Shown here: positions 9,761 to 19,204 of the stretch, piece by piece
Position numbering within the stretch: the stretch's first letter is position 1
How the letters are laid out: the number at the start of each line of letters is the position of its first letter
DNA from: an uncultured virus (IMG/VR IMGVR_UViG_3300044912_000278)
Taxonomy: Duplodnaviria; Heunggongvirae; Uroviricota; Caudoviricetes
IMG/VR virus record: IMGVR_UViG_3300044912_000278
DNA length: 20,000 nucleotides
Reading direction: 5' to 3' (one strand)
Program-made: the position numbers and the translations under genes
Notes under the pieces: generated by a model
Told to the model about the DNA's origin: nothing
Database searches by the model: none
Seen by the model: only the letters and a program-made list of their open reading frames with translations

Positions 9761-9768
9761 TATTTATA
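9761..9768 (-). promoter_or_regulatory. T4 late promoter consensus TATAAATA
   Basis: tatttata on + strand, intergenic, upstream of the 84 aa gene and the glycosyltransferase. Confidence 0.6.
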
Positions 9769-10152: not shown

Positions 10153-10673
10153 TTAAGTACCTTGTCGTTATTATAGTTAAACCAGTTAGTGAACTTCTTG
10201 TGATCTTGTAGATCGTGCAAGCTATGTGTCCACACGCCGGGGTTAGTTGCGTTAAATGTAGTGTCGTCAATCTTAACCATTGTATTATAACTCCAATCCT
10301 TAATATTTGCAACCGGAATTCTAATTTGTGGTATAAAATTATTATACTTGCATAAATTAGTATTTGTGTTAAAATCGATTACTGCTGTAAATGGAATATC
10401 TAATGAACACAGTTTTCCTGTTTTTAAAAAGTGCGCAATAGTGTTATTCCAGTTGAGCCATGCACCTGGTGTATCTGGATTAAAACTATGGTTTGCACCA
10501 AAGAAGATATGTGTAATATCCTCTGTAGTATCTAACCGGTAATGGATTGCTTCTGTAGTTTGAATACCAACAATAAATAATGTTTTTAAACCATATGCTG
10601 GAGTATGCTCTACTTCATCTCCAACAAAAAATTTAGCAGTGTTAGTAGTTGTGTTGTTGTATGTTCTATTCAT
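10149..10673 (-). CDS. hypothetical protein (174 aa) coupled between dpdA and dpdL
   Basis: Overlaps both neighbours; FFVGDEVEHTPAYGLKTLF, HIFFGANHSF, KIDDTTFNATNPGVW. Confidence 0.85.
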   Translation of the reverse strand: MNRTYNNTTTNTAKFFVGDEVEHTPAYGLKTLFIVGIQTTEAIHYRLDTTEDITHIFFGANHSFNPDTPGAWLNWNNTIAHFLKTGKLCSLDIPFTAVIDFNTNTNLCKYNNFIPQIRIPVANIKDWSYNTMVKIDDTTFNATNPGVWTHSLHDLQDHKKFTNWFNYNNDKVLK

Positions 10674-12297
10674 CTTTAATGCTATCTTCTAAGTTAGATA
10701 AGTTAAGTTCTTCATCAACGAAATCATCGTCATCGTCATCAAATGACCATAATTCATTAACCTTTGTATCAGGATTGATTGTTTTTTTACCAGTATTCCC
10801 GCGTGTACCAGGTATTGCTATCCACAGTTTGTTATATGTTTTAATAATTGCCAATGCGTCAACTAAATTATCAACTGCAAAGATTGAATCAATAACATCT
10901 CTAACATATACGTGTTTAAATTTTTCATCCACTAACATATTAGGCAAAATACCGTTATCGTATGCTCGATTTGCCTGTTGTACAGCATCCAAGTGACTCC
11001 ATACGTTGTGCCCCATTAATATAGCATAACTAAAACTATCCCAACTAGTTCTACCTACTTTATTAACTTTATTAGCATCACCCATTGTAATCCAATATTT
11101 AGGATCATTTAAGTATAATGGATCTGAAAATAATAATGCATGATCAATGTTATCATTATCAACTTCTGTCCAGTTAGGAACACCTTGACTGTATATACAT
11201 ATATCTTTAATTGGTACTTGATCGATTAACGGACTTGGATTAAACACTTTAAAGATCTTATCTTGAATAACTGCATCTTTAAATAGTCGAGTATCAGTTG
11301 AATATTTTTTATCATCAGCACTTGGCACCATTCGATACACCCATTTAGATCTATCTTCAACTTCGGTAGTAATATAGACTTGACCATTTGCAGTAGCTAA
11401 AAATGGACTAGCACAATCGTAACTAATAGTAAAGTTTGGATTATGATATTTACGTACTGCCCGTTGAATGTCTGTTAATAAACATGCCCATTCTAATTTA
11501 CTTGTTCCTAAAAAATGCATCCAATCTTGATGCCCTTGTTCTAGTAATCCGTCAAATCGCAATGTAACTAATCGTCTAAGAACTAGGTCAGCATCACACA
11601 TGTTTTGTCCACCCATTGCCCAACCATTAAACGCCTTGTCACCGTAGATAGTAGGATCGCAATATTTCTTCATACGTTGGTACCAATCTTCTGCATCAGT
11701 GTGTGTTTCGCCTTGCAATACGTTTAAGAATTTGCATTTACCAGAGCGATTATTAACAAAATAATCATTATTAATATAAGTACCTTGTACTGCATCCATG
11801 TAATCATTAATACCTGTTGCTGCTTGCCCTGCAGGGCTACGTGCAACCCACGCAGGAATATCAAGACACATACCGTAATCCATTAACTCGTCCATCCATC
11901 GTAATACTTGTTCACGTTTCTTTTGTGCTTTAGGACAAGCAGGATCTTTCCAATCAGCCGGCCACACACCTTTACCAATCTGGAAACCACCTGAGTCACC
12001 TAGTACCCAACTTGTAGTTCTGTCTCTGTTACGAAACATGTCTTCGCTTTCGTCAAACTTATCTAAATCTAAGTTTGCGTGTCCTGCTGAATATAAGCAC
12101 CATTTGTAGTAGAACTCTCCTTTTTCAGGTTCTAAATAGTTAAGTCCTTCTACTCCAGCTTTAAATGATGCAGGAATACGTGAAGGTTCAACATAATTAC
12201 CGTAACGTTGTTTTCCAATAAACGTCGAGTAAAAACCCGACGTTGCTGGTAGGAAAACAGCATAATCATTCTGCGTTGCTGTTAAGTTCCGATTCAT
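10666..12297 (-). CDS. dpdA: TGT-fold DNA 7-deazaguanine transglycosylase (DpdA family, possibly DpdA2-like)
   Basis: TGT motifs in order: GDSGGFQIG, MCLDIP, NVLQG, GWAMGG, MHFLGT, ISYDCASP, GHN; context with folE, queE and a T-fold gene. Confidence 0.85.
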   Translation of the reverse strand: MNRNLTATQNDYAVFLPATSGFYSTFIGKQRYGNYVEPSRIPASFKAGVEGLNYLEPEKGEFYYKWCLYSAGHANLDLDKFDESEDMFRNRDRTTSWVLGDSGGFQIGKGVWPADWKDPACPKAQKKREQVLRWMDELMDYGMCLDIPAWVARSPAGQAATGINDYMDAVQGTYINNDYFVNNRSGKCKFLNVLQGETHTDAEDWYQRMKKYCDPTIYGDKAFNGWAMGGQNMCDADLVLRRLVTLRFDGLLEQGHQDWMHFLGTSKLEWACLLTDIQRAVRKYHNPNFTISYDCASPFLATANGQVYITTEVEDRSKWVYRMVPSADDKKYSTDTRLFKDAVIQDKIFKVFNPSPLIDQVPIKDICIYSQGVPNWTEVDNDNIDHALLFSDPLYLNDPKYWITMGDANKVNKVGRTSWDSFSYAILMGHNVWSHLDAVQQANRAYDNGILPNMLVDEKFKHVYVRDVIDSIFAVDNLVDALAIIKTYNKLWIAIPGTRGNTGKKTINPDTKVNELWSFDDDDDDFVDEELNLSNLEDSIKDE

Positions 12298-13478: not shown

Positions 13479-16142
13479 TTAATCAAAATCAAATAAGCTA
13501 TTAAATGTATTTCTATCTGATGTATCAACTAATTTCCAATTTAAGATACCGATTAAGTTATCTAGTTTGTTATCAATAATAGTATCTTCCATTTCGTTGT
13601 GATCGAATGGCAAGTCTTTAAACCATTGTGGCAATCGTAATTCGTCTACTGGATATGCAACACTTGTAAAGCCTAACGGGTTTTGTTTAAGTTTGCATAC
13701 AATAACTTTTGCACCATCTGTAACACTCATTGAGTATTTGTCACCGTACATACGTTTTAATGTATTCCAATTTAAACTTGCTCTAACATGACCTGGCATA
13801 TTAACTTTCCCATGCTTAGTTTCTTTATCTAAGTATGTTGTAATATTATTTGCACGTTTTGGTGAACCTTTTTCCCAGCCCGGCCTAGCTTTAAATACTA
13901 ATCTAAATTTGGTAATATAATCTAATACATTTGTTTCAGTATCACCTGATAATACCATTTTTAATACAGTAGCTAAAAAGTCTTGAATGAATTCTGGCGT
14001 ATCACTACGTTTCAAATCTAGTCCCATAACTTTAATTTCACCAATGCTGCCATTTGTGTCTTTACGTTTACCTTCTTTATCATATACAAGCACTGCATAT
14101 CGTTTTTTAGTAATAAACAATGATTTGCTACCAATAATCTCACGACCTGCTTTAATAACATCACCGCGTGTCTTTGGACAATGGAATGCATCTAACATAA
14201 ACTGTTGGAATGTTCCATTAACTTGATCACCAATTTGATCGTACAACTGAATAACCGTTTCTCTAGTCCATGGTAAACTTCCGTTATCAATATCTTTCTG
14301 CAATATTTTGTATGCTGAAAAATAACATGAGTCAGTATCACCATATATAATAGATTTTCCTGTATGATTATACTCACCGGTAATAATTTCATTTACTGTT
14401 GCAGCCATATGTTTCGCAATTTGCCTACCAGTTAACGTAGTTGATTGTCCAATCCGTTTGTCAAAGAATCTACACCCTGGGTTAAGAATTGCACCATACA
14501 AACTATTTAGGTTAATCTTCTTAACTAGCTGACGTTTATCCCAGTACTCTTCTTCAATCTTATTACCTGCATTGATTGCTTCTTTTAGCTTTTTCTGCAT
14601 ATCTTTACGTTCTGCATACCAACGTTTAAGTAATCCAGGAATAATACCTTCAGTTTCATACGAAAAGATAGTACCATTTGCTGAAATAACCCACGGTTGA
14701 TTACTTTGGAATATTAATCGATAAACTTCGGCTGCACTTAGTACATCAGTATCACCATTTTCCCAATCAACTATAATGTCGGTACCTATTTCTTCATTCA
14801 TTACAGACGTATACTCGAGTGTACCAAACAATCCCTCCCATGCTGCAGCAAATGACTTTCCTTTTGCTAGTTGCATAGAAATATATTCATCAGTTGCTAT
14901 AGGTCTTAACTGCCCTACAATAGTTTCCGGACCCATATTTAATGCTCGAATAGCACTTGGATATAGTGAATTAATATCTAGTGAACCTATCCAGTCGTGT
15001 ATACCTTCTTTAGGATATGCAACATATGCTCCAGCAGCTTGAATTGGTTCTGCTTTCCCTTTTCTATTAGGTACAACAAATCCTCGATGATGTGCTTCAT
15101 TAATGATAGCTTGCTCTGTTACTGCGACTGCACCCATTGTAGTCTGTAATAATACAGTATTTTCATGAGCAAGAGTGTTAGCTAAGTCAATAAATTTTAA
15201 TTTCTTATCAAGTCTGTCTAACAGCATAGTATCTTGTCTGTTGTACTCAATAAATGTTTTAAAGTCGTTATTATATAATTGATCAAGCGTGCCTTCGTAT
15301 TGGGTTTTACGTTCCCCTAACTCATATTCTGCAATTGCATCTAATCGAAAGCTGTGTCGTTCTTCATACGTATATTTTCTGTATAATTCTAAACTATCTA
15401 AATGCACACGACCAACAAAATCGTATGTAACGGCTTGTTTTCCATACTTTTCATATTCGCGACGTTTAGGTAATTGATTAAACAAGCAGAATCGACGAGT
15501 GTCATCTTTTGATAACACTTTAGTAACACGATTCACTGTATACGGAATATCAAATCCTTCACTATTCCATCCGCTAATGATATCAGCATCATCTAATAAC
15601 GTAAGAAATGTATCTAACATATCTGCTTCATTATCAAATAGAATAGTATTGGGGAATTCTTTAACTTGTTCTTTAGCTTGCTCTATAGTTAATGTTTTAG
15701 GAGGAACTGCTAGACATATAAGGGTTTCTAGCCATTGTAGGTATACTGCAATAGCTGTAATAGGCATAAACGCATCATCTGGTGATGCATATCCTCGTTC
15801 CGGATCAAAATCAACCTCGATATCATAAAACGCTATATTAAGTTTAGGTGCATCGTGATTGAGATAGTTATCTGACAAGCATTTAAAAATTGGATTAATA
15901 TCTGCTTCAAATAACTTTTGGTTACCATGTATTGCTAACTCTTTTCGGAACTCTTTTGTGTTGTTACAAACAACTTTTGATACAGGATCACTGTAAATTG
16001 ATTGATATTTCCCTTTTGGATCGGTATAATATAATGTAGGTTTAACGGGGATATCTTTATATTCTCGTTCACCTTTTGAATTTCTTTCTACAAGTTTAAT
16101 AACATCGTTTTCACGATCAAAATATGCATCAACATAACTCAT
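13479..16142 (-). CDS. polB: family B DNA polymerase (gp43-like) with 3'-5' exonuclease
   Basis: ExoI YDIEVD, ExoII GWNSEGFDIPY, ExoIII YNRQD, motif A LDINSLYPS, motif B KKINLNSLYG, motif C YGDTDS, KKRYA. Confidence 0.97.
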   Translation of the reverse strand: MSYVDAYFDRENDVIKLVERNSKGEREYKDIPVKPTLYYTDPKGKYQSIYSDPVSKVVCNNTKEFRKELAIHGNQKLFEADINPIFKCLSDNYLNHDAPKLNIAFYDIEVDFDPERGYASPDDAFMPITAIAVYLQWLETLICLAVPPKTLTIEQAKEQVKEFPNTILFDNEADMLDTFLTLLDDADIISGWNSEGFDIPYTVNRVTKVLSKDDTRRFCLFNQLPKRREYEKYGKQAVTYDFVGRVHLDSLELYRKYTYEERHSFRLDAIAEYELGERKTQYEGTLDQLYNNDFKTFIEYNRQDTMLLDRLDKKLKFIDLANTLAHENTVLLQTTMGAVAVTEQAIINEAHHRGFVVPNRKGKAEPIQAAGAYVAYPKEGIHDWIGSLDINSLYPSAIRALNMGPETIVGQLRPIATDEYISMQLAKGKSFAAAWEGLFGTLEYTSVMNEEIGTDIIVDWENGDTDVLSAAEVYRLIFQSNQPWVISANGTIFSYETEGIIPGLLKRWYAERKDMQKKLKEAINAGNKIEEEYWDKRQLVKKINLNSLYGAILNPGCRFFDKRIGQSTTLTGRQIAKHMAATVNEIITGEYNHTGKSIIYGDTDSCYFSAYKILQKDIDNGSLPWTRETVIQLYDQIGDQVNGTFQQFMLDAFHCPKTRGDVIKAGREIIGSKSLFITKKRYAVLVYDKEGKRKDTNGSIGEIKVMGLDLKRSDTPEFIQDFLATVLKMVLSGDTETNVLDYITKFRLVFKARPGWEKGSPKRANNITTYLDKETKHGKVNMPGHVRASLNWNTLKRMYGDKYSMSVTDGAKVIVCKLKQNPLGFTSVAYPVDELRLPQWFKDLPFDHNEMEDTIIDNKLDNLIGILNWKLVDTSDRNTFNSLFDFD

Positions 16143-16321
16143 GCTGCACCGCCGTTGCGATCGCGATTAGTTGCATGATCATTAATCCATTCCATAAATG
16201 CTTCTTCTTCACTACGTAGTGTTGCGACATCTTCATTAATGTGTTTTTCTATACCACATTCATTTCTTTCAACACACACGTCAGGATTATGACATGTTTC
16301 GCATATTGTTAAGTTTTCCAT
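16139..16321 (-). CDS. small Cys-rich protein (about 60 aa) translationally coupled to polB
   Basis: Start revised to MENLTICETCHNPDVCVERNEC (ATG 16321, GAG upstream); ATGA overlap with polB. Confidence 0.65.
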   Translation of the reverse strand: MENLTICETCHNPDVCVERNECGIEKHINEDVATLRSEEEAFMEWINDHATNRDRNGGAA

Positions 16322-16337
16322 ATTGTATCTCAGTTTA

Positions 16338-16387
16338 TGTGATTTGTGGCTCACAAATACCATTTTGCAGCTTGTGGCCTGCCTACC
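16338..16387 (-). promoter_or_regulatory. tandem stem-loop element: GGTA-G-GCAG-GCCACAAG-CTGC and GGTA-TT-TGTGA-GCCACAAA-TCACA
   Basis: Two hairpins with different stems but the same 8 nt loop GCCACAAR and the same 5' GGTA, immediately upstream of the polB unit. Confidence 0.7.
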
Positions 16388-16406
16388 GTTTCGTGTTATA
16401 CTTATG

Positions 16407-16661
16407 TTAAATACGTTTTGTAACGTCTAAGATTGCTTCAACTTCTTCCCAATCTTCATTATGATCTGCCCAATTTCCTTTATGCGCTATCTTAATAGCT
16501 TTATTAATTACAGCAGGTTTAACTTGTAGTTCTTCTGCTACTGATTTTACAGTATCGCGTAAACCGGTTTGCAAGTCTTCAATTTCACGCAATACAAGTG
16601 AACCTTCATTGATTAATTTGTCAAGTTTAGATTTTTCTTCAGGACCGTATGCTCTGCTCAT
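16407..16661 (-). CDS. dsbA: T4 DsbA-like double-stranded DNA binding protein / transcriptional regulator
   Basis: 84 aa helical protein KLDKLINEG..VLREIEDL...DTVKSVAEEL.VKPAVINKAIKIAHK; SD GGAGA. Confidence 0.7.
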   Translation of the reverse strand: MSRAYGPEEKSKLDKLINEGSLVLREIEDLQTGLRDTVKSVAEELQVKPAVINKAIKIAHKGNWADHNEDWEEVEAILDVTKRI

Positions 16662-16693
16662 TTAATGTATCTCCGTTGTGTAGTAAAGTATGT

Positions 16694-16722
16694 ATTATAT
16701 ATTAAAATGCTCAATATGTCAA
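16694..16722 (-). promoter_or_regulatory. sigma70 consensus promoter TTGACA-N17-TATAAT
   Basis: tgtcaa 16717-16722, attata 16694-16699; immediately downstream of a terminator, upstream of dsbA-polB. Confidence 0.85.
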
Positions 16723-16743
16723 CTGGCATGGTAAAATGAAGAT

Positions 16744-16769
16744 AAAAAAAGGCAGATTAATCTGCCTTT
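16744..16769 (-). terminator. intrinsic terminator AAAGGCAGA-TTAA-TCTGCCTTTTTTT
   Basis: Perfect stem followed by 7 T on the minus strand, about 20 nt after the stop at 16788. Confidence 0.88.
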
Positions 16770-16787
16770 ATTTAGTACTAGTAAATA

Positions 16788-17654
16788 TTAGTGTGATAAA
16801 CTTTGCATTTGTTGTTGTACATCAGCTACATGTTTTTGTACGTCCGGATCACTGGTTTGACTAACAGATGCTAACAGGCTATTTAATTTAGCCATAATCG
16901 CAGCTTCACTGTTGTCAAATTGTGTCATATCCGGTGCTGCAGGTGCAGATGGTGCTGTCGGTGCTGTTGATGCTGCCGCCGGTTCATCAGATGGTTGATG
17001 TGATCTAGTATGATCTGCAGGCGTAGCACCTCCGCCATCAATACCTAGGTATTTTGCTTTTGCTGCGCGAGTTAATGGTCCTTCTTTACCGTCAAGTTCT
17101 AAATTTGCACCAAATTCATCATTTAAGAATTTTTGCAATTTTTGAACTTTTGGATCGCCTGTAAAATTAGCTTCTGGTTTAGCATCAGTTCCTGGTTTAA
17201 CTTCTGGTTTAACTTCTGGTTTAACTTCTGGTTTAACTTCTGGTTTAACTTCTGGTTTAACTTCTGAGTCGTCTGACCATGGCATTGTTGGCATCGATGG
17301 CATCGATGGCATTTTTCCTGTATCAAGTGCATGCATACCTGCAGCACCTGCTCCTGCAATACCAGCAACTGAAGTACGTCCACCCCATTTAGCTGCTGCT
17401 TTATCTGCATCGCTAGCTGCATTCCATGCACTTGCTGCGCCTTTGGGCTCTTTAAAACCTAAACCTCGTGCATAATTAAGTGCAGCAATTCCTTTACTTG
17501 CTAGCGATTCATTAGCTATTGATTCCATGTGTTCTTTCAATGAAGAAGACGCATATGTAGGAGTAGTTATTTCTGCAGTATGTGACGGATTGTCAATTAA
17601 TGCCAATCGATCGCGTAATAAAGCAATTGATTCTGTTAATGTAGTTGGTTTCAT
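16788..17654 (-). CDS. low-complexity putative virion protein with peptidoglycan-binding-like motif and (EVKP)6 repeat
   Basis: VQKLQKFLN...LELDGKEGPLTRAA resembles PG_binding_1; Gly/Ala hydrophobic stretch VAGIAGAGAAG. Confidence 0.8.
   Translation of the reverse strand: MKPTTLTESIALLRDRLALIDNPSHTAEITTPTYASSSLKEHMESIANESLASKGIAALNYARGLGFKEPKGAASAWNAASDADKAAAKWGGRTSVAGIAGAGAAGMHALDTGKMPSMPSMPTMPWSDDSEVKPEVKPEVKPEVKPEVKPEVKPGTDAKPEANFTGDPKVQKLQKFLNDEFGANLELDGKEGPLTRAAKAKYLGIDGGGATPADHTRSHQPSDEPAAASTAPTAPSAPAAPDMTQFDNSEAAIMAKLNSLLASVSQTSDPDVQKHVADVQQQMQSLSH
17192..17266. repeat. perfect 12 bp tandem repeat (ctggtttaactt) x6, encoding EVKP
   Basis: Six identical units 17192-17263 plus a partial unit. 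Confidence 0.95.
17281..17312. repeat. 9 bp tandem repeat (ggcatcgat-like) encoding MPSMPSMPTMP
   Basis: ggcattgtt ggcatcgat ggcatcgat ggcat. Confidence 0.8.
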
Positions 17655-19204
17655 ATTCTATTTTCTCGTATATAAGTTTTAATTGCTGCTCTAGTTAGCG
17701 GACCCATCTTGCCATCTGGCTCTAAATGTGCGCCTAGCGAATTTAAGTATTCTTGAAATTGTTTAACACCTAGTTTAGTTGCTGAAGTAGTCGCTGTATG
17801 CGCAGCAGGCACACTTGCAGCTGGTTTATCTAACGGTGGCGGACTAGGCATTGCTGCAGTCGGAGGTGCAGCTTGAGGTGGTTTAATTGCTATATCTTTT
17901 TTACCCACATCTGACGGTTTTGCCGCAGTAGCTGGTAATTGTTGCGCACGAGCTTGATCCTTAGCTTTCTCCATATCTAATGTTCGACCGATATTTATTG
18001 CATCTAACCCTAATGATGCTGCAGTACCAATTCCGGGAACTAGCGATACTAAACCGGATGCTGCAGCAATACCTGAACCTAAATAATCACCTTCTTTTGC
18101 TCGATCATATGCATCATATGCACCATATGCTGCGCCTAAACCCGGGATGAGTTTAGAGCCAGCCTTTGCTAATGCAGCTTTTCCTACAGTAGGTGCAGCA
18201 CTTTTTGTTGCAGAACCTGCTAATTTAGCCATATCTAGTGGGCTAGATTTTATAGCACTTTTTGCTGCAGCAGGTTTAAATTTGCTTGTGTCCATTGCGT
18301 TATACTTTGCATCGTTTACGCTCGCTGATGGCATTGGACTAGATCCATCAGCGTACCCAAAAGCCTCTAATAGTGCATCTGCTACGCCGTTAAATGATTC
18401 ATGCACTGCAGGTGTTGTAGGACGTGGAAGATTTGCCATCATTGCATTTAATTGTGCCCCTTTGTTACCCATGCCTGCTGTTATATCTTTAAGTGACGAA
18501 GATGCTTGATTTAAGTAATTTGCAATATTAGGTGGCGGTGTATTTCCTGAATATTGGGTGCTATAGTTACCACTACCGTTAGCAGGAACAGGAACCCCAT
18601 TAAACCCGGGCACTTTCATACCTTTAAGCATATCAGGAACTTGTTGCATATTAAATCCAGGTGATTGCATATTGCCCTGACTTGCAAAATTAGGAGTAAT
18701 TTGAGCTTGACCTGGTGTCTGTGACGTAACAGGTGCTGCACCTGCTGATGACATCGTAGCAGCAGCTCGTTTATTATGTAAATCAGTTAACTGTTTAAGT
18801 AACTCGTCAATTTGATGTAATTTATCAGCTAATTCATTATGTTGTGTAGAAATAGCCGCACTTTGAGTTTTTAAGTTGGCATTAGCAGCATCGAACACTC
18901 TATTGTTATCGAACCAGCCTGCTTGTGGAAGTTTTGCATTTGGTGGAAGTAATCCAGCAGCTGATAATTTTTCAGCAACTTCAAATGGAACTTCATCATC
19001 TTCATCACCGTCTACATCAACAAAATTGCCAGTAACTGGATCAACTAATCCTTCAAGATTGTTATCTTTTGCTAGCTTTGCTAATAACGGTAATCGTACT
19101 TTATCGTCTTGTTCGTATCCAGTAGTAGCAGCTACTACTGCACTCAATGTTAAACCTTCATTTAACATATCTAGTTTATTCATTAATGTTCTAAAATCCA
19201 TCAT
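17651..19204 (-). CDS. low-complexity putative virion protein with glycine-zipper-like segment and C-terminal peptidoglycan-binding-like motif (517 aa)
   Basis: KLIPGLGAAYGAYDAYDRAKEGDYLGSGIAAASGLVSLVPGIGTAASLGLDA; VKQFQEYLN...LEPDGKMGPLTRAAIK; SD GGAGG. Confidence 0.82.
   Translation of the reverse strand: MMDFRTLMNKLDMLNEGLTLSAVVAATTGYEQDDKVRLPLLAKLAKDNNLEGLVDPVTGNFVDVDGDEDDEVPFEVAEKLSAAGLLPPNAKLPQAGWFDNNRVFDAANANLKTQSAAISTQHNELADKLHQIDELLKQLTDLHNKRAAATMSSAGAAPVTSQTPGQAQITPNFASQGNMQSPGFNMQQVPDMLKGMKVPGFNGVPVPANGSGNYSTQYSGNTPPPNIANYLNQASSSLKDITAGMGNKGAQLNAMMANLPRPTTPAVHESFNGVADALLEAFGYADGSSPMPSASVNDAKYNAMDTSKFKPAAAKSAIKSSPLDMAKLAGSATKSAAPTVGKAALAKAGSKLIPGLGAAYGAYDAYDRAKEGDYLGSGIAAASGLVSLVPGIGTAASLGLDAINIGRTLDMEKAKDQARAQQLPATAAKPSDVGKKDIAIKPPQAAPPTAAMPSPPPLDKPAASVPAAHTATTSATKLGVKQFQEYLNSLGAHLEPDGKMGPLTRAAIKTYIRENRI

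Follow-up and report, generated by a model that had tools for sequence, protein, structure and literature searches.

A conserved tandem hairpin motif upstream of family B DNA polymerase genes in giant freshwater phages

The 20,000-nucleotide (nt) stretch of DNA analysed here, called the window in what follows, belongs to an uncultured virus of the Caudoviricetes (IMG/VR record IMGVR_UViG_3300044912_000278). Its minus strand carries, ahead of a gene for a family B DNA polymerase (polB), a leader element of two tandem hairpins, each preceded by a GGU triplet that can pair with the hairpin loop. Comparison with related loci shows a predicted RNA structure that is conserved, strand-specific, present in single copy, and held at a fixed position relative to the ribosome-binding site (RBS) of the cistron that comes first in the polymerase message. 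That the window leader belongs to a large, uncatalogued family of cis-regulatory RNAs is well supported by these comparisons. We judge the chances to be about evenly balanced that the motif serves as a translational operator at the RBS, probably bound by the polymerase itself, an effector suggested by analogy.

The window is part of a 99.7-kilobase (kb) viral record that is estimated to be 27% complete, and the public sequencing runs that contain the stretch are lake-water metagenomes. Because one of its relatives is a complete genome of 372 kb with terminal repeats, the source is a giant phage.

Structure and covariation of the leader

A first-pass annotation, made from the letters of the window alone, had laid out two minus-strand hairpins with GGU triplets and 8-nt loops, and this layout agrees exactly with the sequence from 16387 to 16338. 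The parts of the element, with its Shine-Dalgarno (SD) region, and the two genes that follow it (protein lengths in amino acids, aa) are these:

16330..16389, minus strand: whole leader motif as matched by covariance model R1 (61 positions), two tandem hairpin/pseudoknot units up to the SD-like GAG
16367..16387, minus strand: unit 1, with GGU at 16387-16385, spacer AG, stem GCAG/CUGC (16382-16379 with 16370-16367) and the 8-nt loop GCCACAAG at 16378-16371; the linker AAAAU follows the stem
16338..16361, minus strand: unit 2, with GGU at 16361-16359, spacer AUU, stem UGUGA/UCACA (16355-16351 with 16342-16338) and the 8-nt loop GCCACAAA at 16350-16343
16319..16337, minus strand: single-stranded tail, with UAAACU, a weak SD-like GAG at 16331-16329, AUACAAU, and the AUG at 16321-16319
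16139..16321, minus strand: Cys-rich open reading frame (ORF) of 60 aa, the first cistron after the leader; its stop overlaps the polymerase start (AUGA)
13479..16142, minus strand: family B DNA polymerase, 887 aa (Pfam DNA_pol_B, 3.5e-37; DNA_pol_B_exo1, 3.3e-18)

Relatives were collected as three samples. Sample 1 comes from a polymerase-anchored search of viral contigs and holds 80 loci with 71-100% identity. Sample 2 is also polymerase-anchored and also holds 80 loci, but was seeded with a divergent N-terminus, that of the polymerase of locus L131. Sample 3 was drawn from viral contigs with a strict DNA pattern for the motif, which gave at least 120 stretches, 80 of them retrieved. At least 145 distinct motif sequences have been seen.

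A MAFFT alignment of 65 distinct 90-nt sequences (A1) was scored for two helices of 5 base pairs (bp) each. In total, 88.8% of cells are paired, compared with 70.8 ± 0.9 in shuffled alignments, and 151 cells carry compensatory changes, compared with 44 ± 7 after shuffling, a count that none of 500 shuffles reached. Changes on both sides are found at 9 of the 10 pairs. When the structure was slid by 1-3 columns as a control, only 15-43% of cells paired. RNAalifold independently yields the same two hairpins from A1, with compensatory changes at 8/8 predicted pairs. Covariance model R1 gives a single strong match, of 45.8-78.4 bits, in every one of 100 sources, and the R1-fitted alignment of 98 distinct rows is 91.3% paired, with 243 compensatory cells against 71 when shuffled. 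The internal covariation claimed earlier for the stems therefore holds in A1, in the RNAalifold structure and in the R1-fitted alignment alike. Likewise, the check that had been proposed for it, a covariance model of the regions upstream of homologous polB genes, gave strong covariation, with the motif in all 80 loci of sample 1.

Helix 1 covaries at all four of its core pairs across the family; its outermost pair is optional, being unformed in 44 of the 65 sequences of A1. Pairing in helix 2 reaches 95-98% of cells, and its two central pairs have changed on both sides in 24-61 sequences. The stems vary freely, whereas the loops and the GGY triplets (GGU or GGC) are nearly invariant. Loop 1 is GCCAUAA(A/U/G) in 92 of the 98 distinct rows (GCCAUAAN), and its last base is never C. 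Loop 2 follows GCC-NN-AA-(A/G), with positions 4-5 free, and GCCACAAR accounts for 10 of 98 distinct loop-2 sequences. The spacing from loop to loop is 28-30 nt in 140 of 145 distinct sequences. Exact GCCACAAR occurs twice on both strands of the window taken together, and both copies are in the leader, 28 nt apart. The window has three peculiarities: the inserted 60-aa cistron, the weak SD, and a C in place of U at position 5 of both loops.

The first-pass annotation had also noted an alternative fold of unit 2 (AUUUGUG-AGC-CACAAAU) as a possible switch, and the minimum-free-energy structure of the window leader does choose that fold. The alternative requires AC at loop-2 positions 4-5, which only 10 of 98 rows have. 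Because these positions are free in the family, a conserved switch is unlikely.

Each hairpin is preceded by GGY, which lies 6-7 nt before the loop in 123 of 127 unit-1 sequences. Combinations of triplet and loop, counted by script for unit 1 over 127 distinct sequences, are as follows:

Unit 1 (n = 127), triplet/loop: GGU/GCC 99, GGC/GCC 22, AGU/GCU 3, GGU/ACC 2, GGU/UCC 1
Unit 2, triplet/loop: GGU/GCC 125, GGU/ACC 6, GGC/GCC 2

All changes but one retain the three pairs between triplet and loop. The change from G to A in the triplet is found in exactly the three sequences that have C changed to U at the partner loop position, a coincidence with odds of 1 in 333,375 if relatedness is ignored. 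The carriers (L061, L255 and L268, with copies) each belong to a different polymerase lineage. They are only 80% alike among themselves, and their nearest polymerase relatives, which in the case of L268 is 97.6% identical, all have GGU/GCC. This pattern suggests that double changes have recurred, or that leaders have been exchanged. Thus, the GGU:GCC pseudoknot, put forward previously on the basis of complementarity within the window, gains covariation support, in that all three GCU loops carry AGU and do so in separate lineages. The pseudoknot is supported on few events, with fewer changes than the stems. The predicted geometry, in which a 3-bp GGY:GCC helix is combined with a first loop of 1-3 nt, a stem of 4-5 bp, and an A-rich third and last loop of 5 nt, fits a compact H-type pseudoknot.

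These data also bear on the possibility that the element acts as DNA, for example as an origin of replication, a promoter, an operator or a repeat bound by protein. A single copy per genome, adjoining replication genes, would suit such a site. However, the stems vary freely yet stay complementary, unlike protein-binding DNA palindromes, and the element keeps one orientation and a set distance from the SD and the start codon. Moreover, the majority U:G pair (99/127) would be a C:A mismatch on the opposite strand, which favors RNA on the sense strand. We therefore regard a DNA-level function as highly improbable.

Association with polB and the ribosome-binding site

The element is directly before the polymerase SD and start codon in 67 loci of sample 1, and before an inserted short ORF in the other 13 (L001-L009, L069, L058, L059 and L062). 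The gene upstream of the element varies between loci, whereas the element stays with polB. In sample 2, the motif is directly before polB in 76 of 80 loci; an inserted ORF is found in L215, L216 and L218, and L293 is without the motif. In sample 3, which was selected by the motif rather than by the polymerase, the polymerase start is 16-25 nt past the pattern in 76 of 80 loci, about 200 nt past it in three, and not within 400 nt in L171. Viewed from the gene, polB lies within ~215 nt downstream in 79 of the 80 retrieved loci, and ~650 nt downstream in the 80th (L171).

The distance from the end of hairpin 2 to the start codon is 9-19 nt (mode 12) in 149 of 162 distinct sequences, the remaining 13 being the insertions and L293. 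GGAG is present in the tail after hairpin 2 in 139 of these 149 sequences, and across the family the units end 2-5 nt before the SD. Among 157 distinct polB starts that were read, 130 are AUG and 27 are UUG; the script placed five others out of register. Weak start codons are common in tightly controlled genes.

The description of the element as upstream of the DNA polymerase is thus correct for the family, but needs amendment for the window. There, the AUG at 16321 opens the 60-aa ORF, and the polymerase starts inside the stop of that ORF. Therefore, the window leader heads a bicistronic orf60-polB unit, and does not precede polB directly. An SD-like GGCGGUG is present within the 3' end of the 60-aa ORF, and together with the AUGA overlap it fits control of polB through translational coupling.

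The motif was sought elsewhere in the same genomes. In the window, R1 scores the leader at 66.3 bits (E = 1.5e-19), and the next-best site at 7.8 bits (E = 0.79; cmsearch). One strong R1 match was found in the phage's own 99.7-kb record and one in each of five out of five long relatives, including the complete 372-kb genome, always at the polymerase locus; three further matches in the long relatives are weak (E = 0.59-0.97). A script was also used to scan the own record and the complete 372-kb genome for single units (GGY, a stem of at least 4 pairs, and a GCCNNAAN loop). Only the two units at polB were detected in either genome, where Markov-simulated sequences gave averages of 0.67 and 2.1. 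By these searches, the motif is present once per genome, ahead of polB.

Beyond this group of phages, the strict pattern was searched in one genome from each of 185,579 prokaryote species and gave a single chance match, without hairpins or polB. Similarly, no motif was found by the model or by eye at the nearest cultured polymerases, those of Atu_ph07 (45%), CBB (42%) and XacN1 (31%).

Candidate functions and related systems

The combination of nearly invariant loops and GGY triplets with free stems and tight spacing suggests a recognition-type pattern. In phage T4, the DNA polymerase gp43 is a translational autorepressor that acts through a hairpin in the leader together with the RBS, and autorepression is also described for gene 43 of RB69 and RB49 (PMC3014915). 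Because the site is unique to the polymerase message, and because the T4, RB69 and RB49 polymerases autorepress, the polymerase would be the most economical effector. Under this proposal, the leader RNA would fold into two tandem mini-pseudoknot units that end just before the SD of the first cistron. A trans-acting protein would recognize, in both units, the conserved loops and the GGY triplets; once bound, it would block entry of the 30S subunit and so throttle translation of the polymerase. The protein would most likely be the DNA polymerase itself when it is off DNA, as for gene 43 of T4, RB69 and RB49. In the window, the leader would act on the 60-aa ORF, and the polymerase would be reached via translational coupling at the AUGA overlap.

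The leader presumably works most like the T4 gene 43 operator, judging from layout, without being a member of that family. As read from the T4 record, the operator is AGCCU-AAUAACUC-GGGCU, followed by AUAAACUAAGGAAUAUCUAUG. The architectural likeness noted in the first-pass annotation was confirmed on this reading, in that stem length, loop length and distance to the AUG are 5 bp, 8 nt and 16 nt for unit 2, and 5 bp, 8 nt and 18 nt for the T4 hairpin. Both elements are in the leader of a family B polymerase and adjoin the RBS, and the loop sequence is conserved in both. Gene 43 operator loops have UAAC in T4 and RB69 and UAAA in RB49 (PMC3014915). Loop 1 of the present family contains an A-rich UAA core, loop 2 is free at positions 4-5, and the window's own loops read CACAA. 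The AUAAACU that the first-pass annotation ascribed to T4 does follow the T4 operator, but among the relatives it is confined to the small-ORF subclade of the window (the window, L005, the L007 type and L114). Because the family consensus at this position, in the tail after hairpin 2, is CAUA(A/U)GGAGAA, the shared heptamer is probably a chance likeness. The gene 43 operator is a single hairpin, for which there is no evidence of a pseudoknot (PMC3014915), whereas every member of the present family has two units, each with a supported pseudoknot.

The T4 gene 32 operator resembles the leader in another respect, being an H-type pseudoknot ahead of a gene for phage replication; there, it mediates autogenous translational control of the single-strand-binding protein (PMC3014915). 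That operator is one larger pseudoknot at the 5' end of its leader, far from the RBS, that nucleates cooperative coating of a long unstructured stretch reaching to the RBS. In contrast, the leaders described here have two tiny pseudoknots that abut the SD, and the gene is polB.

Several observations weigh against control by the polymerase, or against direct control of polB. The effector is predicted by analogy alone, and the polymerase is only ~26% identical to T4-type gp43. Even among T4-related polymerases, some do not autoregulate (PMC3014915). A search of the T4 gene 43 region with R1, its filters disabled, found nothing at the leader, and the best match elsewhere has an E value of ~1. Nothing in a polymerase obviously corresponds to the twin-unit design, and why it would need two sites is not obvious. 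Inserted genes separate leader and polymerase in 13/80, 3/80 and 4/80 loci of samples 1, 2 and 3, respectively. Among them, L171 and L218 (the same contig), L215 and L216 have an ORF of ~205 aa between leader and polB. In the L218 type, polB is served by a separate SD and by a UUG start 12 nt past the stop of the inserted ORF, and the leader is ahead of the inserted gene; there, the leader would directly control another cistron. Locus L293 has no motif within 500 nt upstream of polB and no clear SD. Its polymerase is 62% identical to the L131 N-terminus used as query, and the locus may represent a natural loss of the leader. In the window, the SD is weak (GAG only), and the leader considered on its own has a folding z score of -0.85, with 41 of 200 shuffles equally stable. 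Because the window's own fold is not unusual, the case rests on the relatives; the evidence for the predicted leader structure is comparative, and thermodynamic support is absent.

The same structural evidence would serve equally for a different trans-acting protein, such as a phage repressor or RNA-binding protein or a host protein, that would occlude the RBS when bound to both units. A pair of equal units is better matched to an RNA-binding protein that is dimeric or has two domains than to a polymerase. The thrS operator of Escherichia coli has two like-looped hairpins upstream of the SD, each bound by one subunit of a dimeric autorepressor, with loops that mimic the tRNA anticodon arm. It shares with the leader the two like-looped hairpins before the SD, although protein and sequence are unrelated. 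In keeping with another protein, the leader remains with whichever cistron is first when a gene has been inserted. On the other hand, general repressors such as T4 RegA have many targets (PMC3014915), but here there is one site per genome. Moreover, no candidate gene steadily adjoins the motif, in that the upstream gene varies and the small ORF is confined to a subclade. An operator for another protein is therefore doubtful.

The element could instead be a riboswitch-like sensor, in which the mini-pseudoknots, singly or as a pair, bind a small molecule or ion and, when folded, impede access of the ribosome. This possibility is raised by the compact H-type pseudoknot geometry, by invariant loop bases beside free stems, and by tandem, near-identical units that are tightly spaced before the SD. 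Two established classes are reminiscent of the leader. Guanidine-II (mini-ykkC) RNAs are very small and have two similar hairpins with conserved loops and free stems just before the SD, and preQ1-I riboswitches are H-type mini-pseudoknots of ~34 nt with an A-rich loop, also just before the SD. The present family differs from both in loop sequences and in the polarity of the pseudoknot (here, the 5' strand pairs with the loop), and it serves one gene family only. Riboswitches of a known class are commonly present at several genes of a pathway, but this motif precedes one gene family in one phage clade, and the prokaryote survey with the strict pattern gave a single chance match. In addition, no Rfam family matches even at E values up to 10, and the SD lies outside any conserved pairing, with no anti-SD seen. 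Taken together, a riboswitch-like function is unlikely. It is quite unlikely that the leaders are, in particular, tandem riboswitches that sense a metabolite of the nucleotide pool (a deoxynucleoside triphosphate or a modified-base precursor) or an ion and thereby gate polymerase synthesis in giant lake phages.

Finally, the structure might need no effector, and could be a 5' end that protects the message from decay, or a standby site or insulator that fixes a low rate of initiation. In favor of this, a 200-nt contig from a metatranscriptome, identical to 16193-16392, has its end 5 nt before the first GGU, and many loci have an A/T-rich TAAATA-like box 14-20 nt ahead of the motif, so that the motif may lie at the very 5' end of a transcript; in addition, 27 of 157 start codons are UUG. 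However, the end of a contig cannot show the end or the strand of an RNA, and the library may hold DNA. Protective hairpins also need no invariant loops, GGY triplets or fixed loop spacing. We regard an effector-less structure as decidedly improbable.

Genomic surroundings and significance of the motif

Upstream of the leader, the window contains these features:

16407..16661, minus strand: DsbA-like gene, 84 aa (Phage_DsbA, 3.4e-05, below the Pfam cut-off; PHROG 639, transcriptional regulator, 1.9e-12)
16694..16722, minus strand: sigma-70-like promoter TTGACA-17-TATAAT (12/12), ahead of the DsbA-like gene
16769-16748, minus strand: terminator-like hairpin, preceding the sigma-70-like promoter

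This hairpin is the one terminator-like site that a scan of 15900-17000 gave; the leader hairpins, followed by AAAAU and UAAACU, lack the U-run of an intrinsic terminator. Because the scan placed no terminator between the DsbA-like gene and the leader, co-transcription of the two is possible. The arrangement of terminator-like hairpin, promoter and DsbA-like gene is also found in L002-L009 and L069. Because it is kept in these loci, a single early promoter of the host type may serve both the DsbA-like gene and the polymerase unit. A scan of the window for tRNA and tmRNA (transfer-messenger RNA) genes detected none.

When the 45-nt stretches ahead of the motif were compared among 146 distinct relatives, many loci had the TAAATA-like box 14-20 nt before the first GGY, irrespective of which gene lies upstream. 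The box may be a promoter of the T4 late type, in which case the motif would be at the transcript's 5' end. In the corresponding part of the window (16392-16420, minus strand), only CAUAAGUA is present at the box position, and the metatranscriptome contig ends 7 nt past CAUAAGUA, which is a weak hint. Matches to TATAAATA with at most one mismatch are depleted in the window (44, compared with 80.6 ± 9.2 expected). The only exact copy of TATAAATA is at 9761-9768 (minus strand), 19-26 nt before the start of the ORF at 9742-9401. This pattern would fit T4-like late promoters in the window phage.

The 60-aa ORF is kept as a protein in L002, L004, L005, L007 and L069 (57-63 aa), where it has the arrangement CxxC...C...CxC and FMEWINDHATNRD. 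Its pattern in this one subclade is CxxC..P..C...CxC, then FM(E/S)WIN(D/E)HATNRD. A 50-aa ORF with a similar Cys pattern is located between leader and polymerase in L058. No Pfam or PHROGs match was found for the small Cys-rich ORF. The inserted ORF of ~205 aa matches PHROG 2954, annotated as ferrochelatase (E = 9.4e-43), with no Pfam match. An assignment of the copy in L218 as a 2OG-Fe(II) oxygenase was unconfirmed, in that PHROG 2954 matches and Pfam gives nothing.

The window polymerase is less than 60% identical to all 2686 matching records, and the best cultured match is that of Atu_ph07 (45.4%). When the region was compared with cultured phages by BLASTN, the leader had no match, and the only alignment was of 108 nt (74%) inside the DsbA-like gene of PA5oct-type phages.

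Other proteins of the window were noted in passing. The genes at 16788-17654 (288 aa) and 17651-19204 (517 aa), both on the minus strand, encode low-complexity, Ala/Pro-rich proteins. The 288-aa protein has six tandem KPEV repeats. The two proteins share a similar terminal LEPDGK-GPLTRAA, and in the 517-aa protein one such segment matches the peptidoglycan-binding Pfam domain PG_binding_1 (2.6e-05). The ORF at 10666-12297 (minus strand, 543 aa) contains LGDSGGFQ, the catalytic motif of tRNA-guanine transglycosylase and DpdA-type enzymes, and might encode such an enzyme, but neither Pfam nor PHROGs gives a match.

With regard to novelty, Rfam 15 gave no match at the gathering score over the window, and none at E values up to 10 over 16280-16430. 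With this empty comparison and the covarying stems, the suggestion of an undescribed, conserved cis-acting RNA motif tied to polB is upheld. A full-text literature search for a prior description returned only the T4 literature and one bulk catalogue (PMC10690425). As summarized there, the catalogue holds 10,006 viral structured-RNA candidates, three of them upstream of POLBc genes. One, DNAVirus_1784, is 79 nt long and comprises 23 sequences, all from freshwater lakes, 16 of which are within 25 bp upstream of POLBc; it is flagged as terminator-like and assigned no function, and the main text of the catalogue never says polymerase (PMC10690425). By these features, DNAVirus_1784 may be the leader motif or part of it, and this may bear on priority.

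The family matters in either case, being absent from Rfam, giving a clean covariation signal, and being ready for a family model. If the effector were a small molecule, the units would represent a new, very small class of aptamer, and a riboswitch here would be the first known to control a replicative polymerase. To our knowledge, T4 and its close relatives are the only phages in which experiments have established that a replicative DNA polymerase controls its own translation. The present motif is a structurally different leader, with twin pseudoknots rather than one hairpin, on the same gene in a large clade of uncultured giant freshwater phages. If the polymerase binds it, the leader would constitute a new, small RNA-protein recognition module of ~60 nt with clear rules, and such control would be older, or more often reinvented, than has been thought.

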